Positions 53,813-61,448 of a stretch of DNA of 64,000 nucleotides are shown in pieces (position 1 is the first letter of the stretch; every line of letters starts with the position of its first letter). This DNA comes from an uncultured Verrucomicrobiae bacterium (GTDB lineage: Bacteria > Verrucomicrobiota > Verrucomicrobiia > Limisphaerales > JAFGQR01): positions 224,001 to 288,000 of the forward strand of contig CAWBHS010000049.1 in the NCBI GenBank assembly GCA_963788655.1. Reading direction: 5' to 3'. The position numbers and the translations under genes were made by a program. The notes under the pieces were generated by a model that searched no databases, was not told where the DNA came from, and worked only from the letters and a program-made list of their open reading frames with translations.

Positions 53813-56287
53813 ATGAAGCGCCCGCTGCTCAACGTGGCGCTGCTTTACATTAGTGGCGTGTTGCTGGGGGAGCACATCGCAATCCCCCTCGGACTTCTTT
53901 TGCCTGGCGCCTGGTTGCTCGCGCTGGCGGCACTGGCTCTCGCGCGGGTGCGCAAGTATTTGCTGGCGCCACTAATTGTGCTGGTGGGGACATTGAACCT
54001 CACGTTGCACCGCGTGCCATTGGCGCCGGATGATTTGCGTTTGTTGATGGGCGCGAAGCCGGAGATTGTCCGGGTACGCGGGGTGTTGGAAGAGGATCCC
54101 ACCGAGCGAATCTATCAGCAAGCGGGCGAGGATGTTTCCCGCACGATGGCCCGGGTGCGGGTCACTGGATTGAAACCCAATCGCGCTTCCTGGCAACCGG
54201 CGTCGGGCCGGTTGGCGGTCACCACGGGCGGCGAATTTCCCGAACCACTGTGGAAAGGTCAGCGCGTCGAAATCGATGGGGTGTTGGCCCCGCCCGACGG
54301 ACCATTGGCGGAAGGCTTGTTCGACTACCGCGCTTACCTGCGGAACCTCGGCATCTATTATCAATTGCAGGTGCAGTCGCCGTTTGATTGGAAGGTGCTC
54401 CCGCCCCGCGTTGTGCCCGGTTTGGCAACGCGCTTTGGCGAATGGGCACGCGGGGTCCTGGCGCGTGGCTTGCCCGTCGAGGATGAACCATTGCACTTGC
54501 TTTGGGCTATGACGCTGGGCTGGCGCACCCGGCTTACCGGCGAAGTGTCGGATCCGTTTATGCGTTCGGGAACGCTCCATGTGTTTGCCATCAGCGGTCT
54601 GCACGTGGCGTTGGTGTGCGGGATTATTGTTCTCGTATTGCGCGTTTTCAAAGTGCCACGCGGGGCGTGCGGAATCGTCGTGATTCCGTTGTTGTGGTTC
54701 TATGCGGCAGTGACGGGTTGGCCCGCGTCGGCAGTGCGGGCGACTGTCATGATGTCGGTGATCATTGCCGGTTGGTCGCTGCACCGGCCAAGTGACCTGT
54801 TGAATTCGCTGGCCGCCGCGGGACTCATCATCTTGGTGTGGGATCCGTTGCAGGTGTTCCAGGCGAGTTTCCAACTCTCCTTTTCCGTGGTGCTCAGTCT
54901 GGCCCTGGTGGGTCCGCCTTTGTATCGGTGGAGCCAACGCTGGTGGCAACCCGATCCATTCTTGCCCGAAGAACTGCGTTCCCCCTGGCAGCGGCGGCTG
55001 GATGTTGGTTGGCGCTGGCTGCGAGCGAGCCTCGTAACCTCACTGGCGGCCTGGCTGGGATCGCTGCCGCTCATCGCCCATTACTTCCATCTGTTTACGC
55101 CGGTCAGTCTGCTGGCCAATGTTTTCATTGTGAACCTGGCAGCCGTGGCCTTGACCAGCAGTCTGGCCAGCGTGCTGTGCGGCGCCTGGTGGCCGGGGGT
55201 GTCCGTGCTGTTCAATCACAGTGCCTGGTTCATCATGGCGGTGATGTCCTGGACCAGCCGACACATCGCGGAATGGCCGGGCGCCTGGTTCTATGTTCGC
55301 AGTCCTTCAGCCGCCGGGCTGGCCTTGTATTACGGGATTCTCCTCAGTCTTGCGGCGGGTTGGTGGAGGCGGGCCAAGTGGCGGCCGTATATGGCAACAA
55401 TTTTGGGAATGACAGCCTTGTGGTGGGCGGGCGAGCAAATCATGTCAGCCACCCAAACGCGGATGACCGTGCTCCCGCTCAATGGCGGTCATGCCATTTA
55501 TTTCGACGCGCCGGGTTGGCGGTCCGATCTCCTGATCGATTGCGGCAATGAATCATCCGTTCAATCGGTCGTGATCCCGTTTTTCAAAGCCCAAGGCATG
55601 AACCGGCTTCCCACCCTGGCCCTGACCCATGGTGATGTGCGCCATGTGGGGGGCGTTGGACAGTTGAACGAAACGTTTCCGGTGCCGCGCATCATCAGGA
55701 GCCACTTGCGATTTCGGTCACCGCTTTACCGCAAGTGGGAGCAGGAGTTTGATCCCGCCGCCGGGCGGGCGCGCCTGGTTCAGCCGGATGACATGGTGGG
55801 ATGTTGGAAAGTGCTTCATCCGGATGCCGAAGATCATTTTGCTCAGGCGGACGACGGATCGTTGGTGTTGTGGGGCGACTTCCGGGGAACGCGCATTTTA
55901 ATGTTGGGGGATTTGGGTAAGGCCGGCCAGGCGGCGCTATTGACTCGCTATCCCGGCTTGCGGGCGGACATCGTCGTTTCCGGTTTGCCCGAGAAGACTG
56001 AGCCGCTCGACAATGCGTTCATCCAGGCGCTGCAACCGCAGATGTTGATTATCGCCGATTCGCGATATCCGGCGACACAACACGCCAGTCGCAAGGTGCA
56101 AGCGCGGCTGCGGCTCCAGCGCCTGTCGGTGCTTTACACCAGGGAAACCGGCGCGCTGACGATTGAGCTGCACCGCCGCGGTTGGACGATAGTCGGCATG
56201 CACGGCGAAGGCATTTCGGGCGGCCCCGGCGGGATCATTCAACCGGCCGGGTCAGTCGCACTGCGACATGACGAGCTTGCGGAATGA
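53813..56287 (+). CDS. comEC: ComEC/Rec2 competence protein (DUF4131 + Competence + MBL domains)
   Basis: FDYRAYL, GTLHVFAISGLHV, SAVRATVM, SFQLSF, LLIDCG, LTHGDVRHVGG. Confidence 0.93.
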   Translation: MKRPLLNVALLYISGVLLGEHIAIPLGLLLPGAWLLALAALALARVRKYLLAPLIVLVGTLNLTLHRVPLAPDDLRLLMGAKPEIVRVRGVLEEDPTERIYQQAGEDVSRTMARVRVTGLKPNRASWQPASGRLAVTTGGEFPEPLWKGQRVEIDGVLAPPDGPLAEGLFDYRAYLRNLGIYYQLQVQSPFDWKVLPPRVVPGLATRFGEWARGVLARGLPVEDEPLHLLWAMTLGWRTRLTGEVSDPFMRSGTLHVFAISGLHVALVCGIIVLVLRVFKVPRGACGIVVIPLLWFYAAVTGWPASAVRATVMMSVIIAGWSLHRPSDLLNSLAAAGLIILVWDPLQVFQASFQLSFSVVLSLALVGPPLYRWSQRWWQPDPFLPEELRSPWQRRLDVGWRWLRASLVTSLAAWLGSLPLIAHYFHLFTPVSLLANVFIVNLAAVALTSSLASVLCGAWWPGVSVLFNHSAWFIMAVMSWTSRHIAEWPGAWFYVRSPSAAGLALYYGILLSLAAGWWRRAKWRPYMATILGMTALWWAGEQIMSATQTRMTVLPLNGGHAIYFDAPGWRSDLLIDCGNESSVQSVVIPFFKAQGMNRLPTLALTHGDVRHVGGVGQLNETFPVPRIIRSHLRFRSPLYRKWEQEFDPAAGRARLVQPDDMVGCWKVLHPDAEDHFAQADDGSLVLWGDFRGTRILMLGDLGKAGQAALLTRYPGLRADIVVSGLPEKTEPLDNAFIQALQPQMLIIADSRYPATQHASRKVQARLRLQRLSVLYTRETGALTIELHRRGWTIVGMHGEGISGGPGGIIQPAGSVALRHDELAE

Positions 56288-56585
56288 TGAACTTCTTGAC
56301 CTCGACCGTGATGGATTGGGGACGAAACTCCTCAAGGATCATGGACGCGATGTCAGCCGCCAGCGTTTCGATCAACGCCCAGTGAACCCCTTCGCCGAAG
56401 CCCAACAGTTTCTGGGTAACCGCGTAATAATCGATGGTGTCCGCCAAGTCATCGTTGGTGCTGGCCGCTTTGAAGTCATGCGTCATTTCCACGGTGAGTA
56501 ACAGGCGCTGCGGCTTGCCGCGCTCTTCATCCGTCACGCCCACCTGATAGAACACTTCGAGATCGGAGATGATGATTTTGTCCAT
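56235..56585 (-). CDS. folB: Dihydroneopterin aldolase
   Basis: MDKIIISDL...GVTDEERGKPQRL, DDLADTIDY, LIETLA, VEVKK. Confidence 0.93.
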   Translation of the reverse strand: MDKIIISDLEVFYQVGVTDEERGKPQRLLLTVEMTHDFKAASTNDDLADTIDYYAVTQKLLGFGEGVHWALIETLAADIASMILEEFRPQSITVEVKKFIIPQARHVAVRLTRPVE

Positions 56586-56588
56586 GGT

Positions 56589-57668
56589 TCAAGGAGTGGT
56601 TTCAGTCGCCGTTGAGTATTTGGCCAACACCGATTCCAACAGGATGCGGGTCGGCTGGTTCAAGTCCAATTTCAACGCGGCCTCGGGGGATAGCCAACGA
56701 AAGGCTTCCGCTTCGTCATTTAATTTGACTTGGGGATCGAGGCCGCAACGGCAGGTGTAATTCAACAGGATGAAATGCGCGGGTCGGTAGAATTCCTCCG
56801 ACGCAATGCAGTCCTGCACCAGCACAAACTCAAGGTTGGTGATGTCGAGATTGGTTTCCTCCTTCAGTTCGCGGCGCAACGCGTCGTGCGACGTTTCGCC
56901 GAACTTGATTTTGCCGCCGGGAATGCCCCACAAGCGGGACCATTTGCGGGTCCGCACCATCAACACCTGGTTGGCCGGATTGAAGATCAGCGCACCCACC
57001 GTGGCCACCGGGCGATTGTCCAGGGGCGCGGGATTGAACTCGAGTTGGTTCCGTTCAAGGATCGCTTGCAATTCCGCCAAATGCTCGACCATCAGATCCG
57101 GTTTGGCGACGCGCAGTTGCTGCACGCTGTTGTATCCGGTGAGCACCGCGCAGGAATAGACGCCGCCGTGCCGCGCCGTTTCGATGTCGTGCTGCATGTC
57201 GCCGACGAACAGGGTCTCCTGCGGCTCGAGTTGGTTCTCCGCCAGTATCTCGCCGATCTTGTGGCGTTTGTCGTGGACGCCGAGGTAAGCCTTGTCGAGC
57301 AACGCCGCAAAGCCGGTTTGAGCCGCCTGCACCTGGAAATGATCGTGCCGCACCGTGCTGAGCACCAACGTGCGGAGTCGGCGCGCGCGGCAAAATTCGA
57401 GGAACGCCCGGGCGTGCGGCAGCTCGATGACGGAATCCTGGGCCTGGCAGAAATGCTCATGAAACCAAGCTTCCAACTGATCGAGGGGAACGTGGGGGGT
57501 GAACCGGTCGTAGAATCCGCGAAACGGCAAACTGAATTCCGCGCGAAACTGGTCGAGCGTCATTTCCGACAAGCCGGCCCGCACGAACACATGGTTCGTA
57601 GCCAGCAAGACCGCCGGCAAATCGTCCACCAACGTGCCCGACCAGTCGAAAATGATGTTGCGAATCAC
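56589..57668 (-). CDS. HAD-family phosphatase fused to Nudix hydrolase
   Basis: HAD motifs IIFDWSGTL and FVGDMQHD; Nudix box PGGKIKFGETSHDALRRELKEETNL. Stop lies 3 bp from the folB start. Confidence 0.92.
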   Translation of the reverse strand: MIRNIIFDWSGTLVDDLPAVLLATNHVFVRAGLSEMTLDQFRAEFSLPFRGFYDRFTPHVPLDQLEAWFHEHFCQAQDSVIELPHARAFLEFCRARRLRTLVLSTVRHDHFQVQAAQTGFAALLDKAYLGVHDKRHKIGEILAENQLEPQETLFVGDMQHDIETARHGGVYSCAVLTGYNSVQQLRVAKPDLMVEHLAELQAILERNQLEFNPAPLDNRPVATVGALIFNPANQVLMVRTRKWSRLWGIPGGKIKFGETSHDALRRELKEETNLDITNLEFVLVQDCIASEEFYRPAHFILLNYTCRCGLDPQVKLNDEAEAFRWLSPEAALKLDLNQPTRILLESVLAKYSTATETTP

Positions 57669-57674
57669 GAGCCG

Positions 57675-57702
57675 AGTTTAGCGCAGTTGCGATGGCTGGC
57701 AA
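57675..57702 (-). promoter_or_regulatory. Leaderless sigma70-like promoter of the HAD-Nudix/folB pair
   Basis: TTGCCA-16 bp-TAAACT-6 nt-GTG(57668). Confidence 0.6.
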
Positions 57703-57834: not shown

Positions 57835-58527
57835 CTAAGGATGAAACAGCAGCCTCGCATAACCGTAGGCAATGGTTTCGTCGATCACGGTGCGCACGCC
57901 TTCACTGGTTTGCCACCAATGGGCGGGATCGTATCCCCGTTCCTTGATGGCAGTGATGCCGACGTTGGCATCCTTGCCCAGTGCCATTTGAAAGAGCAGC
58001 CAGGTTCGGCGCGCATGCGGCCCTACGGTCATCACATGAAAGTTCCGCGTGGGAATTTGATGTTGGTCCAGCCATTGCCGGAGGGCGACGGCCGAAGCGA
58101 ATGTTCGGTTGCGAAAGGTCTCCGGGGCCGGCACCGTTTGCACCGCATTGGAATTGAGCCCCAACCGCAACAAGATGGCAGTGCCCAGTTCAGCGTGCGT
58201 TTTGTAGTCCGCCAAGTAGGCACCTTTCTCGAGCGGTCCCCCGGTAACATAAAGTTTCGTGTACGGGTGTTGGTTGAATTCGTTCAGCGCCTCCTTCAAT
58301 GCATAATCAGGCGCCCAGCCTTCGACGACCAGGGCACCGCTATAAATCGGGTGGGTCGGTGCCAGGAATGGATACACCTGTGTGCCTGCCAACAACGCCA
58401 GTGCGGCCACAGTGAGCAGCAAGACCGCCCACCCGCGCCACGTAGGCAGCCAGCACTGCCGGCTCCGGAGCAATCCCCAGCAGCGCTGGCTTTGTTTCTT
58501 CGGGGAAGCCATGGAGGGGGAAATCAC
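57835..58527 (-). CDS. YdcF/ElyC (DUF218) family membrane protein
   Basis: N-terminal TM helix; LVVEGW, YVTGG, RTFASA, VMTVGPHARR. Confidence 0.8.
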   Translation of the reverse strand: MISPSMASPKKQSQRCWGLLRSRQCWLPTWRGWAVLLLTVAALALLAGTQVYPFLAPTHPIYSGALVVEGWAPDYALKEALNEFNQHPYTKLYVTGGPLEKGAYLADYKTHAELGTAILLRLGLNSNAVQTVPAPETFRNRTFASAVALRQWLDQHQIPTRNFHVMTVGPHARRTWLLFQMALGKDANVGITAIKERGYDPAHWWQTSEGVRTVIDETIAYGYARLLFHP

Positions 58528-58816: not shown

Positions 58817-59287
58817 ATGGCATCCTCGGGTTTGACCACTGATGGCGCGCCGGGGCCGGGCGCTGCTTCGCTGACGCACACGATCACCTTTCGCGTGCGC
58901 TACAGCGAAACCGATCAGATGGGCACGTTTTATAATTCCCGGGCGCTCGAATGGTTCGAGTGCGGCCGCACCGAATTTCTCCGACACCAGGGCCTGCCCT
59001 ACACCGCGATGGAAGCGCGCGGGACTTTTCTGCCGCTGGTGGAAGCGCATGTGGAATTTCGCGGACGCGCCCGCTATGATGATTTGTTGAAAATGACGAC
59101 GACCATGAGTTGGGTCGGCCGGGCGCGAGTGCGTCTGGACGAATCCATTATCCAGGTTGCCAATGGCAAACCCGTGGCCACCGGTTACACGGTCCACACC
59201 TTCACCGATCAAAGCGGCAAGCCGATCCGTCCGCCAGGTTGGTTTATGGAAGCGTTGGGCGGACCTAATCCAGCGGTGCGGTGCTGA
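58817..59287 (+). CDS. Acyl-CoA thioesterase (YbgC/4HBT family)
   Basis: RVRYSETDQMG...WFECGRTEFLR, ARYDDLL. Confidence 0.92.
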   Translation: MASSGLTTDGAPGPGAASLTHTITFRVRYSETDQMGTFYNSRALEWFECGRTEFLRHQGLPYTAMEARGTFLPLVEAHVEFRGRARYDDLLKMTTTMSWVGRARVRLDESIIQVANGKPVATGYTVHTFTDQSGKPIRPPGWFMEALGGPNPAVRC

Positions 59288-59349
59288 CAAAATTTCCTTT
59301 TCGACAGCCCGCTCGAACGAGTAAAAAATCCAGCAGCAACTCCCTTTGC

Positions 59350-60963
59350 ATGAGTGACGAAAATCGAATGTTGTTAAGCGGCGATGAAGCAGTGGCCCTG
59401 GGGGCCTGGCACGCCGGCGTAGCCCTGGGGGCCGGATATCCCGGTACCCCGTCAACCGAAATCCTGGAATCCTTCTCCAAATTGGGCGGGCGCGGCCAGT
59501 GGTCGCCCAACGAGAAAGTGGCGCTCGAAGTGGCCATTGGGGCGGCCTTTGGCGGGGCGCGCGCGATGGCGACCATGAAGCACGTCGGCTTGAATGTGGC
59601 TGCCGATCCGCTGTTTACCGCCGCCTACACCGGCGTCACCGGCGCGCTGGTCGTGGTCTCCGCCGACGATCCGGGCATGGCCTCCAGCCAGAACGAACAG
59701 GACAACCGCCGCTATGCCGTGGCGGCGGGCGTGCCGATGCTCGAACCGTCCGATTCGCAGGAGGCTTACGACTTCACCCTGGCAGCGGTGGAAATTTCCG
59801 AGCGCTGGCAGATCCCGGTGTTGCTGCGGCTGACCACCCGCGTTTGCCACAGTTACACGGTCGTCAAGCCGCGCGACAATCCGGAAACGCCCAAGCCCGC
59901 CAATTACGAGAAAAACATTCGCGGCCGGGTGATGATTCCCGCCTACGCCCGCCCGGCCCACCGGCGGTTGCGTCAGAAGTTGGCCGAAATTCAGGACTGG
60001 AACGAGACGTGCGCGCTCAACCAGACCGTCGCCGGAAGCCGCGCGCCGGGCATCATCACGTCGGGCATTTCCTACATGCACATCCGCGAGGCGGCGCCGG
60101 AAGCCAGCGTGCTCAAGCTGGGCTTAACCTATCCGCTGCCGATGAAGAAGATCGCCGAGTTTGTCCAATCGGTGGGGCGTTGCGTGGTGATCGAGGAAGG
60201 CGATCCCTACCTGGTGGATGCCATTCGGGCGGCCGGAATTTCTGTCGAGGGCAAGGACGAAATGTATCGGTTCGGCGAACTGAACGTCGAGCGGGTGCAT
60301 CGCATTTTGAATCACGACACCACGCCCGAACCCGCCAAGCCGCCCGGCAAACCGCCCCAACTCTGCGAAGGCTGCCAATACCGCCAGGTCTTCGACACGC
60401 TGCGACGGCGCGATTGCATTGTGGCCGGTGATATTGGTTGTTACACGCTCGGGGTGCTGGAGCCGTTCGAGGCCATCGACAGTTGTGTATGCATGGGCGC
60501 CAGTCTGGGCGTCGGCCTGGGTTTGCGTCACGTGCTCCCACCCGAACAATCGCGCCGCGTGGTCAGCGTGATCGGCGACAGCACGTTCGTTCACAGCGGC
60601 ATCAGCGGCTTGGTGGAGATGGTTTACAATCCCCCGGCCAATGGCCACGTGTTGATCATCCTCGACAACGCCACCACCGCCATGACCGGCCACCAGGAAC
60701 ATCCCGGCACGGGCCGCAAGCTGACCCACGAACCGACCGGCAAAGTCGTGTTGGAAGACCTGGCCCGCTCGCTGGGGGTCCAGCGGGTCCACGTCGTCGA
60801 ACCGCGGGTCGGCTCCAACGAATTCGAAAAGGTGCTGGACGATTGCCTGGGCAGCAACGAACTGTCCGTCATCATTGCCCGCCGGCCGTGTTTATTGATT
60901 GTGAAACAACTTAAGCAATACGAAAGCTGCGAGTGCGAAGCGAAAGGCGCCCATGCCGAGTAA
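59350..60963 (+). CDS. iorA: Indolepyruvate:ferredoxin oxidoreductase alpha subunit (no C-terminal ferredoxin domain)
   Basis: GYPGTPSTEI, NEKVALEVA, MKHVGLNVAADP, SSQNEQDNR, LCEGC, GDIGCYTL, IGDSTFVHSG. Confidence 0.93.
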   Translation: MSDENRMLLSGDEAVALGAWHAGVALGAGYPGTPSTEILESFSKLGGRGQWSPNEKVALEVAIGAAFGGARAMATMKHVGLNVAADPLFTAAYTGVTGALVVVSADDPGMASSQNEQDNRRYAVAAGVPMLEPSDSQEAYDFTLAAVEISERWQIPVLLRLTTRVCHSYTVVKPRDNPETPKPANYEKNIRGRVMIPAYARPAHRRLRQKLAEIQDWNETCALNQTVAGSRAPGIITSGISYMHIREAAPEASVLKLGLTYPLPMKKIAEFVQSVGRCVVIEEGDPYLVDAIRAAGISVEGKDEMYRFGELNVERVHRILNHDTTPEPAKPPGKPPQLCEGCQYRQVFDTLRRRDCIVAGDIGCYTLGVLEPFEAIDSCVCMGASLGVGLGLRHVLPPEQSRRVVSVIGDSTFVHSGISGLVEMVYNPPANGHVLIILDNATTAMTGHQEHPGTGRKLTHEPTGKVVLEDLARSLGVQRVHVVEPRVGSNEFEKVLDDCLGSNELSVIIARRPCLLIVKQLKQYESCECEAKGAHAE

Positions 60964-61448
60964 AGTCACCAATGTCATTGTCGCCGGCCTGGGTGGTCAG
61001 GGCGTGCTGAAAGCCACTGACATCCTGGCCGACGTGGTTCTGCGGGCCGGGTTCGAAGTCAAGAAGAGCGAGATCAAAGGCATGAGCCAGCGCGGCGGGT
61101 CGGTTACCGGCGACGTCCGTTTTGGCGATGAAGTGTTCAGCCCGATGGTGCCCGTCGGCGAAGCCGATTTCCTGTTGGTGCTGGAACCGACCCAGGTCAA
61201 ACCGCACCGCTACATGCTGCGTCCCGACGGCGTGCTGGTCACGCCCGAGCAAGTGGACGCCAGCAAGCTGCCCAATAAGAAAAGCCTGAACGTGGCCATG
61301 CTGGGCGCCTTCAGTGCGCATCTGCAAGTGCCCGAGGACGTGTGGCTCGGAGTCGCTCCGCACGCATTTTCCCGAAGCCTTTTTTGAAGCCAACCGTCAG
61401 GCCTTTTACCTGGGCCGGAATTCGCAATCCCCATCGCCAGCCGAGTGA
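60953..61448 (+). CDS. iorB: Indolepyruvate oxidoreductase beta subunit; frameshift near 61350
   Basis: [25 protein letters not shown]. Corrected end [13 protein letters not shown]...PAE* at 61448. Confidence 0.88.

Follow-up and report, generated by a model that had tools for sequence, protein, structure and literature searches.

Two dephosphorylation steps separate 7,8-dihydroneopterin triphosphate from the substrate of the dihydroneopterin aldolase FolB in the pterin branch of folate synthesis, and the locus described here raises the question of whether a single gene could supply both. The locus lies in a 64,000-nucleotide (nt) stretch of DNA from an uncultured Verrucomicrobiae bacterium (contig CAWBHS010000049.1, positions 224,001 to 288,000; the whole stretch is hereafter called the window) and consists of a gene for a fused HAD and Nudix protein, followed by folB. 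The pyrophosphatase step of the pterin branch is carried out by the Nudix enzymes FolQ and NudB (PMC1971073; PMC5389931), and its gene was described as still missing in most bacteria as of 2007 (PMC1971073). Removal of the last phosphate of dihydroneopterin phosphate has been ascribed to a 'non-specific phosphatase' (PMC1971073, 2007; PMC4161248, 2014). Judged by its domains and its ties to FolB, the HAD-Nudix protein is a strong candidate for both dephosphorylation steps.

The HAD-Nudix gene occupies positions 56589-57668 on the minus strand of the window and encodes 359 amino acids (aa) between a GTG start and a TGA stop. Exactly 3 nt (ACC, 56586..56588, minus strand) separate this stop from the ATG start of folB (56235-56585, minus strand, 116 aa), and the junction reads TGA-ACC-ATG. 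The open reading frames (ORFs), the Pfam domains (HAD_2 and NUDIX) and this junction bear out the initial annotation of the locus, which described a HAD domain fused to a Nudix domain and stopping 3 bp before folB. The assigned start is supported by related loci, since the match opens at query residue 1 or 2 in 76 of 80 of them, with an in-frame stop, and the N-terminus of the related ORFs among the matches listed is M/V-I-R-N-I-I-F-D-W-S-G-T. An AlphaFold2 model of the full-length protein had a mean predicted local distance difference test (pLDDT) score of 92.8 and a predicted template modelling (pTM) score of 0.76. A Foldseek search with this model returned generic HAD and Nudix neighbours, with no solved HAD+Nudix protein among them and no indication of the substrate.

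The HAD domain (residues 1-210; 57039..57668, minus strand) is of the C1-cap type and is nearest to the COG0546 'phosphoglycolate phosphatase-like' fold. Pfam assigned residues 5-175 to HAD_2 (E = 3.4e-19) and residues 140-200 to Hydrolase_like, and the best Foldseek matches of the domain were 2hsz, 2ah5 and 3d6j (target TM-scores 0.79-0.86). It did not reach the equivalog cut-offs for phosphoglycolate phosphatase, PpaX or MupP (best NF009695, 53.3 bits against a cut-off of 225; PpaX, 40.5 against 218), and the only NCBIfam HAD model that it passed was the generic HAD-IA subfamily (25.8 against 23.3 bits). Motif I was reported in the initial annotation as an atypical DWSGT, and this is what we read at 57633..57647 on the minus strand (D8-W9-S10-G11-T12). 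The nucleophilic Asp of the motif I consensus, hhhhDxDx(T/V), is present as D8 of IIFDWSGT in 78 of 78 sequences; the acid/base Asp two residues further on (Asp+2) is absent and is replaced by Ser10. Motif II (S104) is nearly invariant, and K134 of motif III and G156, D157 and D161 of motif IV (G156-D157-M158-Q-H160-D161; 57186..57203, minus strand) are invariant. Altogether D8, W9, S10, G11, T12, D16, K134, G156, D157, M158, H160 and D161 are the same in every sequence of both our alignments (A1, 13/13; A2, 78/78).

These motifs extend well beyond the aligned set. Motif I was readable in 119 of the 150 best representatives and was DWSGT in 107, DWSGV in nine, and DFSGV, DWCGT and DYNGT in one each, which gives Ser at Asp+2 in 117 and Cys and Asn in one each. 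Where both motifs were shown, motif IV was GDxxHD in 87 of 90 representatives. At the position of His160, V, A and N are found in the solved neighbours 3d6j, 2nyv and 2hsz, respectively, and all three keep Asp at +2. DWSGT is thus a family signature, accompanied in motif IV by a His that is specific to the family. Residue +2 of HAD enzymes has two parts to play, binding Mg2+ through its backbone carbonyl and contacting the substrate phosphate through its side chain (PMC10541634); Ser10 would therefore keep the Mg2+-binding backbone role and lose the side-chain role of Asp+2.

The Nudix domain (residues ~217-355; 56604..57020, minus strand) was assigned to Pfam NUDIX over residues 221-341 (E = 9.8e-23). 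Its Nudix box, G252-X5-E258-X7-R266-E267-L-K-E270-E271-T-N273-L (56847..56915, minus strand), had been called intact, and the catalytic core GX5EX7REUXEE is indeed complete; the last consensus Gly is an Asn. G252, E258, R266, E267, E270 and E271 are invariant in 78 sequences, and the core is found in 80 of 81 family members. The non-catalytic last consensus position, N273 here, varies across the family (N 35, G 27, D 10, A 4, S 3, Q 1). The best solved sequence relatives of the domain are 4kyx, 5x1x, AtNUDX1, NudI and NudB (E 1e-8 to 1e-5), with NudB (2o1c) detectable at E = 1.5e-5 and AtNUDX1 at 5.4e-6. Two further kinds of protein came to light around this domain. P0323 and P0343 (~379 aa) join a TP_methylase (RsmI-type) domain to a Nudix domain that is 64-65% identical to that of the family; P0125 (483 aa) has an Smr domain ahead of HAD-Nudix. 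All three are either real fusions or merged gene calls.

If the protein serves folate synthesis, its link to folB should outlast the rest of the gene neighbourhood. A protein search with HAD-Nudix found 5718 relatives at E <= 1e-3 among 8000 candidates scored; the best 120 all combine HAD and Nudix (66-72% identity) and are at most named 'phosphoglycolate phosphatase' or 'NUDIX domain-containing protein'. In a species-level genome collection, a HAD-Nudix relative is encoded at 446 of 600 pattern matches, of which the 80 best (44-69% identity) were analysed. Of these 80 loci, 70 have a FolB homologue downstream in the same orientation, within ~700 nt in 69; at one locus (L033) folB is 2.2 kb from the HAD-Nudix gene, with an insertion sequence-like transposase (DDE domains) and a P63C-domain gene inserted (L033:5123-7066). 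One locus (L059) ends at a contig edge, leaving 79 assessable loci, and folB is directly downstream in 69 of these. The spacers in the 70 loci comprise 15 overlaps, 34 of 0-20 nt, 15 of 21-100 nt and six longer ones, with a median of 8 nt. As a control, other neighbours from the window were sought in the 80 loci: ComEC was found in 17, orf164 (a small ORF beyond ComEC) in 12, and the upstream 230-aa gene, the thioesterase and the IorA-like gene each in none. The pair is kept while its surroundings turn over, which matches the prediction of selection for co-expression, and the linkage to folB looks selected, beyond plain inheritance. The initial annotation had made its proposal, that one protein carries out both dephosphorylations ahead of FolB, depend on this synteny, and at 69 of 79 loci the linkage held. 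At the one full-length relative outside the window's class (L090:3395-4078, G004), a second, ordinary HAD_2 gene of 227 aa follows folB.

Gene fusions connect the HAD domain to FolB directly. We searched a phylum sample of 301 genomes with the whole HAD-Nudix protein and obtained 32 strong HAD orthologues outside the window's genome, of which five were full-length matches and 27 matched in the HAD domain only (E 1e-47 to 1e-60, 39-50% identity); all 32 loci carry DWSGT. Five are HAD-Nudix genes, each adjoining folB. Another 20 are single-ORF HAD-FolB fusions of 325-340 aa, all from one genus with 2-3-Mb genomes (Pfam confirmed the architecture for L085), and two are HAD genes with folB directly after. 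The last five are stand-alone HAD genes from one family, with FolB elsewhere in the genome in 5/5. In this stand-alone family (L134, L135 = G279, G132; also G111, G093), FolB lies in open frames of 307-327 aa and may be fused to another partner.

The same architectures were recovered on a larger scale when 1.84 billion representative proteins were searched with the HAD domain, giving 109 matches at E <= 1e-30. Among them, the 41 listed at 300 aa or longer comprised six HAD-Nudix-FolB triple fusions, 15 HAD-FolB fusions, one with a partial FolB, 13 HAD-Nudix proteins and six with an unassigned tail. When the Nudix-FolB part of one triple fusion served as the query, at least 18 triple-fusion clusters appeared among the best 120. 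Over their full length the triple fusions match the window's HAD-Nudix plus FolB, with short linkers, and the predicted structure of one of them had a mean pLDDT of 94.2 and a pTM of 0.73. By exact look-up, Akkermansia muciniphila has a 330-aa HAD-FolB fusion that goes by 'HAD hydrolase-like protein' or 'phosphoglycolate phosphatase', and a triple fusion annotated as 'NUDIX domain-containing protein' belongs to Prosthecobacter. Since some lineages have the Nudix domain and others lack it, the constant partner of FolB is the HAD domain and not the Nudix domain, a point that is new relative to the initial annotation.

These patterns bear on whether the gene has anything to do with folate. The two domains could instead be a house-cleaning pair, the Nudix domain acting on a damaged or surplus nucleoside triphosphate and the HAD domain on the resulting monophosphate, with the position beside folB an inherited accident. 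Nudix specificity is unreadable from sequence, the best solved relatives include MutT, NudI and ADP-ribose pyrophosphatases, other HAD+Nudix clusters occur in Bacillota with no known link to folate, and public annotations offer just the two generic names given above for the best 120 relatives. An accident, however, would not persist as one polypeptide across families at 40-50% identity; the HAD-Nudix/folB pair survives while all its other neighbours change, FolB fusions come in two forms (represented by 6 and 15 of the 41 long proteins listed, besides the 18 or more triple-fusion clusters), and the HAD domain co-occurs with one clade of FolB, as described below. We therefore regard a role outside folate synthesis as very unlikely.

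The fusions also speak to the chemistry of the HAD domain, for which the missing Asp+2 allows another explanation. The domain might act on phosphoanhydrides, either stripping the triphosphate stepwise or hydrolysing the pyrophosphate released by the Nudix domain, and leave the last phosphate to a non-specific phosphatase. In HAD chemistry a missing general acid is of least consequence when the leaving group is good, and P-type ATPases carry Thr at Asp+2. The pyrophosphatase PpaX is among the best NCBIfam matches of HAD family members, the fold matches include the HAD pyrophosphatase BT2127, and the existence of HAD-FolB lineages without Nudix suggests that the HAD domain may replace it. Yet a HAD-FolB fusion is best explained if the product of the HAD domain, the fully dephosphorylated pterin, is the substrate of FolB; invariant His160 could restore acid/base catalysis, and a chain with both Nudix and HAD would duplicate one function if each domain attacked the triphosphate. 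On balance we consider a phosphoanhydride-specific HAD domain improbable.

The FolB encoded next to HAD-Nudix is itself a canonical member of its family. Residues 4-111 match Pfam FolB (E = 5.3e-26), and the protein passes TIGR00525 at 78 bits (cut-off 72.15). E21, Y53, E73 and K98, which we take to be the catalytic residues of the aldolase, align with those of E. coli FolB (2o90) under identical numbering and are invariant in 68 of 68 HAD-Nudix-linked FolBs. In the phylum sample, FolB was found in 277 of 301 genomes, including all 33 with a HAD orthologue, and the FolB matches from HAD-bearing genomes mostly score lower against Pfam FolB. In a FolB tree, one clade (support 100/94) unites 30 FolBs of HAD-bearing genomes with four from genomes without the HAD, and its sister clade (97/90) consists of ten same-class FolBs, all from genomes lacking the HAD. 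This tree includes five added low-scoring FolBs of HAD-less genomes, four of which fall in the HAD-linked clade, and it leaves out 11 of the 20 HAD-FolB rows, five of the ten genome_contigs rows and P0133, a long branch. An earlier tree that set all 17 FolBs without HAD apart was rejected as biased, the 17 having been drawn from the top of the score list. The HAD thus travels with one FolB lineage, and this lineage can do without it.

A distinct FolB lineage would also fit a different order of events, in which the Nudix domain makes the monophosphate, a divergent FolB cleaves it to hydroxymethyldihydropterin and glycolaldehyde 2-phosphate, and the HAD domain dephosphorylates the two-carbon product. 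The nearest families and folds of the HAD domain are phosphoglycolate phosphatase-like with a C1 cap for small substrates, and its fold matches include phosphonoacetaldehyde hydrolase (2ioh), which acts on an isostere of glycolaldehyde phosphate, also without Asp+2. The HAD-linked FolBs form a clade of their own with mostly lower Pfam FolB scores, as such a scheme would have it, and an archaeal protein has been annotated as a 'dihydroneopterin monophosphate aldolase' (PMC5041015). The window's FolB is nonetheless canonical: it passes the equivalog cut-off, its four residues named above do not vary, and we found no sequence sign of a phosphate-binding site in it. We know of no FolB-family aldolase that uses the monophosphate, and we think it unlikely that FolB acts here before the last phosphate is removed.

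The genome from which the window comes is consistent with a need for such an enzyme. The assembly (8.96 Mb, 115 contigs, 86% complete), whose closest relatives in public records are metagenome-assembled genomes named Verrucomicrobiae, Limisphaerales or Pedosphaera, contains one FolB match, the one beside HAD-Nudix. A FolE2-type GTP cyclohydrolase, HPPK (FolK), DHPS (FolP) and FolC are present, scattered and unclustered, and the neighbours of folK and folE2 include no further folate cluster. FolE type I and DHFR_1 were not found in this assembly, which at 86% completeness is not proof of their absence. Its nine Nudix matches all fall short of the NudB equivalog cut-off of 103 bits, the best at 31. 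By gene content, the organism appears to make the pterin branch de novo, and besides the HAD-Nudix gene its genome is without a recognisable enzyme for the steps from FolE2 to FolB. A second Nudix domain of this genome, at G000:C26:42251-42622 (minus strand), has the best, sub-threshold NudB score and sits in an open frame of 369 aa, a length like that of HAD-Nudix.

We propose that the 7,8-dihydroneopterin triphosphate made by the genome's FolE2 would first lose pyrophosphate to the Nudix domain, giving dihydroneopterin monophosphate. The HAD domain would then remove the last phosphate through an aspartyl-phosphate on D8 to give dihydroneopterin, with His160 of motif IV, or Ser10 as a hydrogen-bond donor, perhaps taking over the acid/base role of Asp+2. 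FolB, whose family assignment was tested by sequence, would split dihydroneopterin into 6-hydroxymethyl-7,8-dihydropterin and glycolaldehyde, and FolK and FolP would carry the former onward. The scheme builds on the domain identities, the intact catalytic motifs and the apparently selected proximity of the gene to folB or its fusion with it; the substrates, the order of the steps, the assignment of domains to steps and the role of His160 are what we infer. The tight or overlapping junctions and the natural one-chain versions further suggest that the Nudix, HAD and FolB activities may act as a unit. We put the probability of the full scheme, in which the Nudix domain makes the monophosphate, the HAD domain removes the last phosphate and FolB cleaves the product, at roughly 0.6. 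That the gene works with FolB in the pterin branch in some way is very probable.

A bolder version would make the DWSGT HAD a dedicated 7,8-dihydroneopterin-monophosphate phosphatase, with D8 as the nucleophile, Ser10 at Asp+2 and His160 as the acid/base. Together with Nudix and FolB it would form a single assembly that takes the triphosphate to hydroxymethyldihydropterin without releasing intermediates, on one chain in Prosthecobacter, and in the Nudix-less fusion of Akkermansia the HAD domain would remove all three phosphates. This version is plausible, and we advance it tentatively, at somewhat less than even odds.

Several observations weigh against the proposed scheme. On the side of the HAD domain, Ser at Asp+2 removes the residue that protonates the alcohol leaving group in HAD phosphatases, and with this replacement efficient cleavage of a phosphomonoester is not assured; remoter DWSG[TV] proteins also occur in records named Patescibacteria and Aenigmarchaeota. 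On the side of the Nudix domain, the NudB equivalog NF006961 is failed at 28.8 bits (cut-off 103), and the domain is no nearer to NudB or AtNUDX1 than to MutT, NudI or ADP-ribose pyrophosphatases. The Nudix domain is moreover dispensable in some lineages: it is missing from the 20 HAD-FolB fusions, and beside three such loci that were scanned there was no Nudix gene, the neighbours being dnaJ, an RNA methyltransferase and unrelated genes. Unrelated genes lie downstream of HAD-Nudix in nine of the 79 assessable loci, and four sampled genomes hold a FolB of the HAD-linked clade without the HAD; by these breaks the coupling of HAD and FolB is not obligatory. The Bacillota HAD+Nudix clusters mentioned above count here as well. 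The evidence comes mostly from one phylum, so that the counts are not independent events, and the literature searched held no enzymology for any member of the HAD-Nudix family.

Around the gene pair, the initial annotation had placed a single promoter upstream. The sole match, a sigma-70-like TTGCCA-16-TAAACT (57675..57702, minus strand) ending 6 nt before the GTG start, is at chance level, with one site in the 2-kb region scanned against 0.6 expected in shuffles, and we give this part of the annotation no weight. The -10 hexamer (57680-57675), if real, would put the transcription start at or next to the GTG and give a leaderless mRNA, and a Shine-Dalgarno-like sequence is not evident ahead of either the HAD-Nudix gene or folB. 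No terminator-like site was found on the minus strand between the two genes, and a search for known RNA elements or riboswitches upstream of or between them gave two sub-threshold chance matches only. On the plus strand, a ComEC/Rec2-type protein (53813-56287, 824 aa; Competence, DUF4131 and metallo-beta-lactamase domains) converges on folB, the 3' ends overlapping by ~53 nt. Directly upstream of HAD-Nudix on the same strand is a 230-aa ORF (57835-58527, minus strand) that begins with a hydrophobic N-terminal stretch and has no match in Pfam or NCBIfam. Beyond it, 58817-61387 (plus strand) holds a 4HBT_2 thioesterase, then a 560-aa thiamine pyrophosphate (TPP) enzyme (POR_N + TPP_enzyme_C) that resembles the alpha subunit of indolepyruvate ferredoxin oxidoreductase, and then an ORF from 60953, with overlapping junctions.

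The HAD-Nudix family offers one candidate for both open steps, and what connects it to FolB, gene fusion, is genomic evidence of the strongest kind. If the bolder version is correct, the DWSGT HAD would fill the last step of the pterin branch of folate synthesis that is without a gene; if the phosphatase assignment in particular is correct, Ser10 and His160 would together represent a way of acid/base catalysis new to the HAD superfamily. Some relatives are recorded under names of bacteria that can be cultivated, among them Prosthecobacter and the much-studied gut commensal Akkermansia muciniphila. Tools based on product names could miss the FolB of Akkermansia, and metabolic models of how gut bacteria produce folate could be affected in turn. 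A HAD dihydroneopterin-monophosphate phosphatase, a HAD-FolB enzyme or a HAD-Nudix-FolB enzyme was not found described in the full-text literature, a coverage that leaves out most subscription journals.

Among known systems, the closest to the Nudix half are FolQ (YlgG of Lactococcus lactis), NudB of E. coli and AtNUDT1, which share with the window's Nudix domain the fold, the catalytic Nudix box and the proposed reaction. As folQ lies in a folKEPQC cluster (PMC1971073) and HAD-Nudix lies beside folB, each sits with a folate gene. The window's Nudix domain differs from NudB in that it is not an orthologue, by the bit scores given above, and is fused to a HAD domain. A FolQ-FolB fused protein has been tabulated for Parachlamydia sp. 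UWE25 (Table 2, de Crecy-Lagard et al. 2007, PMC1971073), from a lineage related to Verrucomicrobiota. It joins Nudix to FolB as the triple fusions do; the text of that paper mentions no HAD.

For the HAD half, the COG0546-type enzymes (Gph, PpaX, BT2127, MupP; fold matches 2hsz, 2ah5, 3d6j, 2nyv and 3qu2) have the same Rossmann-like core, the same four-helix C1 cap and motifs I-IV in the same places. The window's HAD domain departs from them, as judged on three aligned solved neighbours, in the Ser at Asp+2, the Trp after the nucleophile and the His before the second Asp of motif IV. A precedent for the pathway argument comes from riboflavin synthesis, where an 'unassigned phosphatase' step was later assigned to C1-cap HADs acting on a substrate of nucleotide size, YigB and YbjI of E. 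coli and their plant homologues. There too a vitamin pathway derived from GTP contained one dephosphorylation long ascribed to non-specific enzymes; YigB and YbjI differ from the HAD domain described here in pathway and substrate, in standing alone and in having a normal DxD motif. A Nudix pyrophosphatase and a HAD phosphatase are both known kinds of enzyme, and what is new in this family is the non-canonical HAD active site and the proposed new assignment to a pathway.

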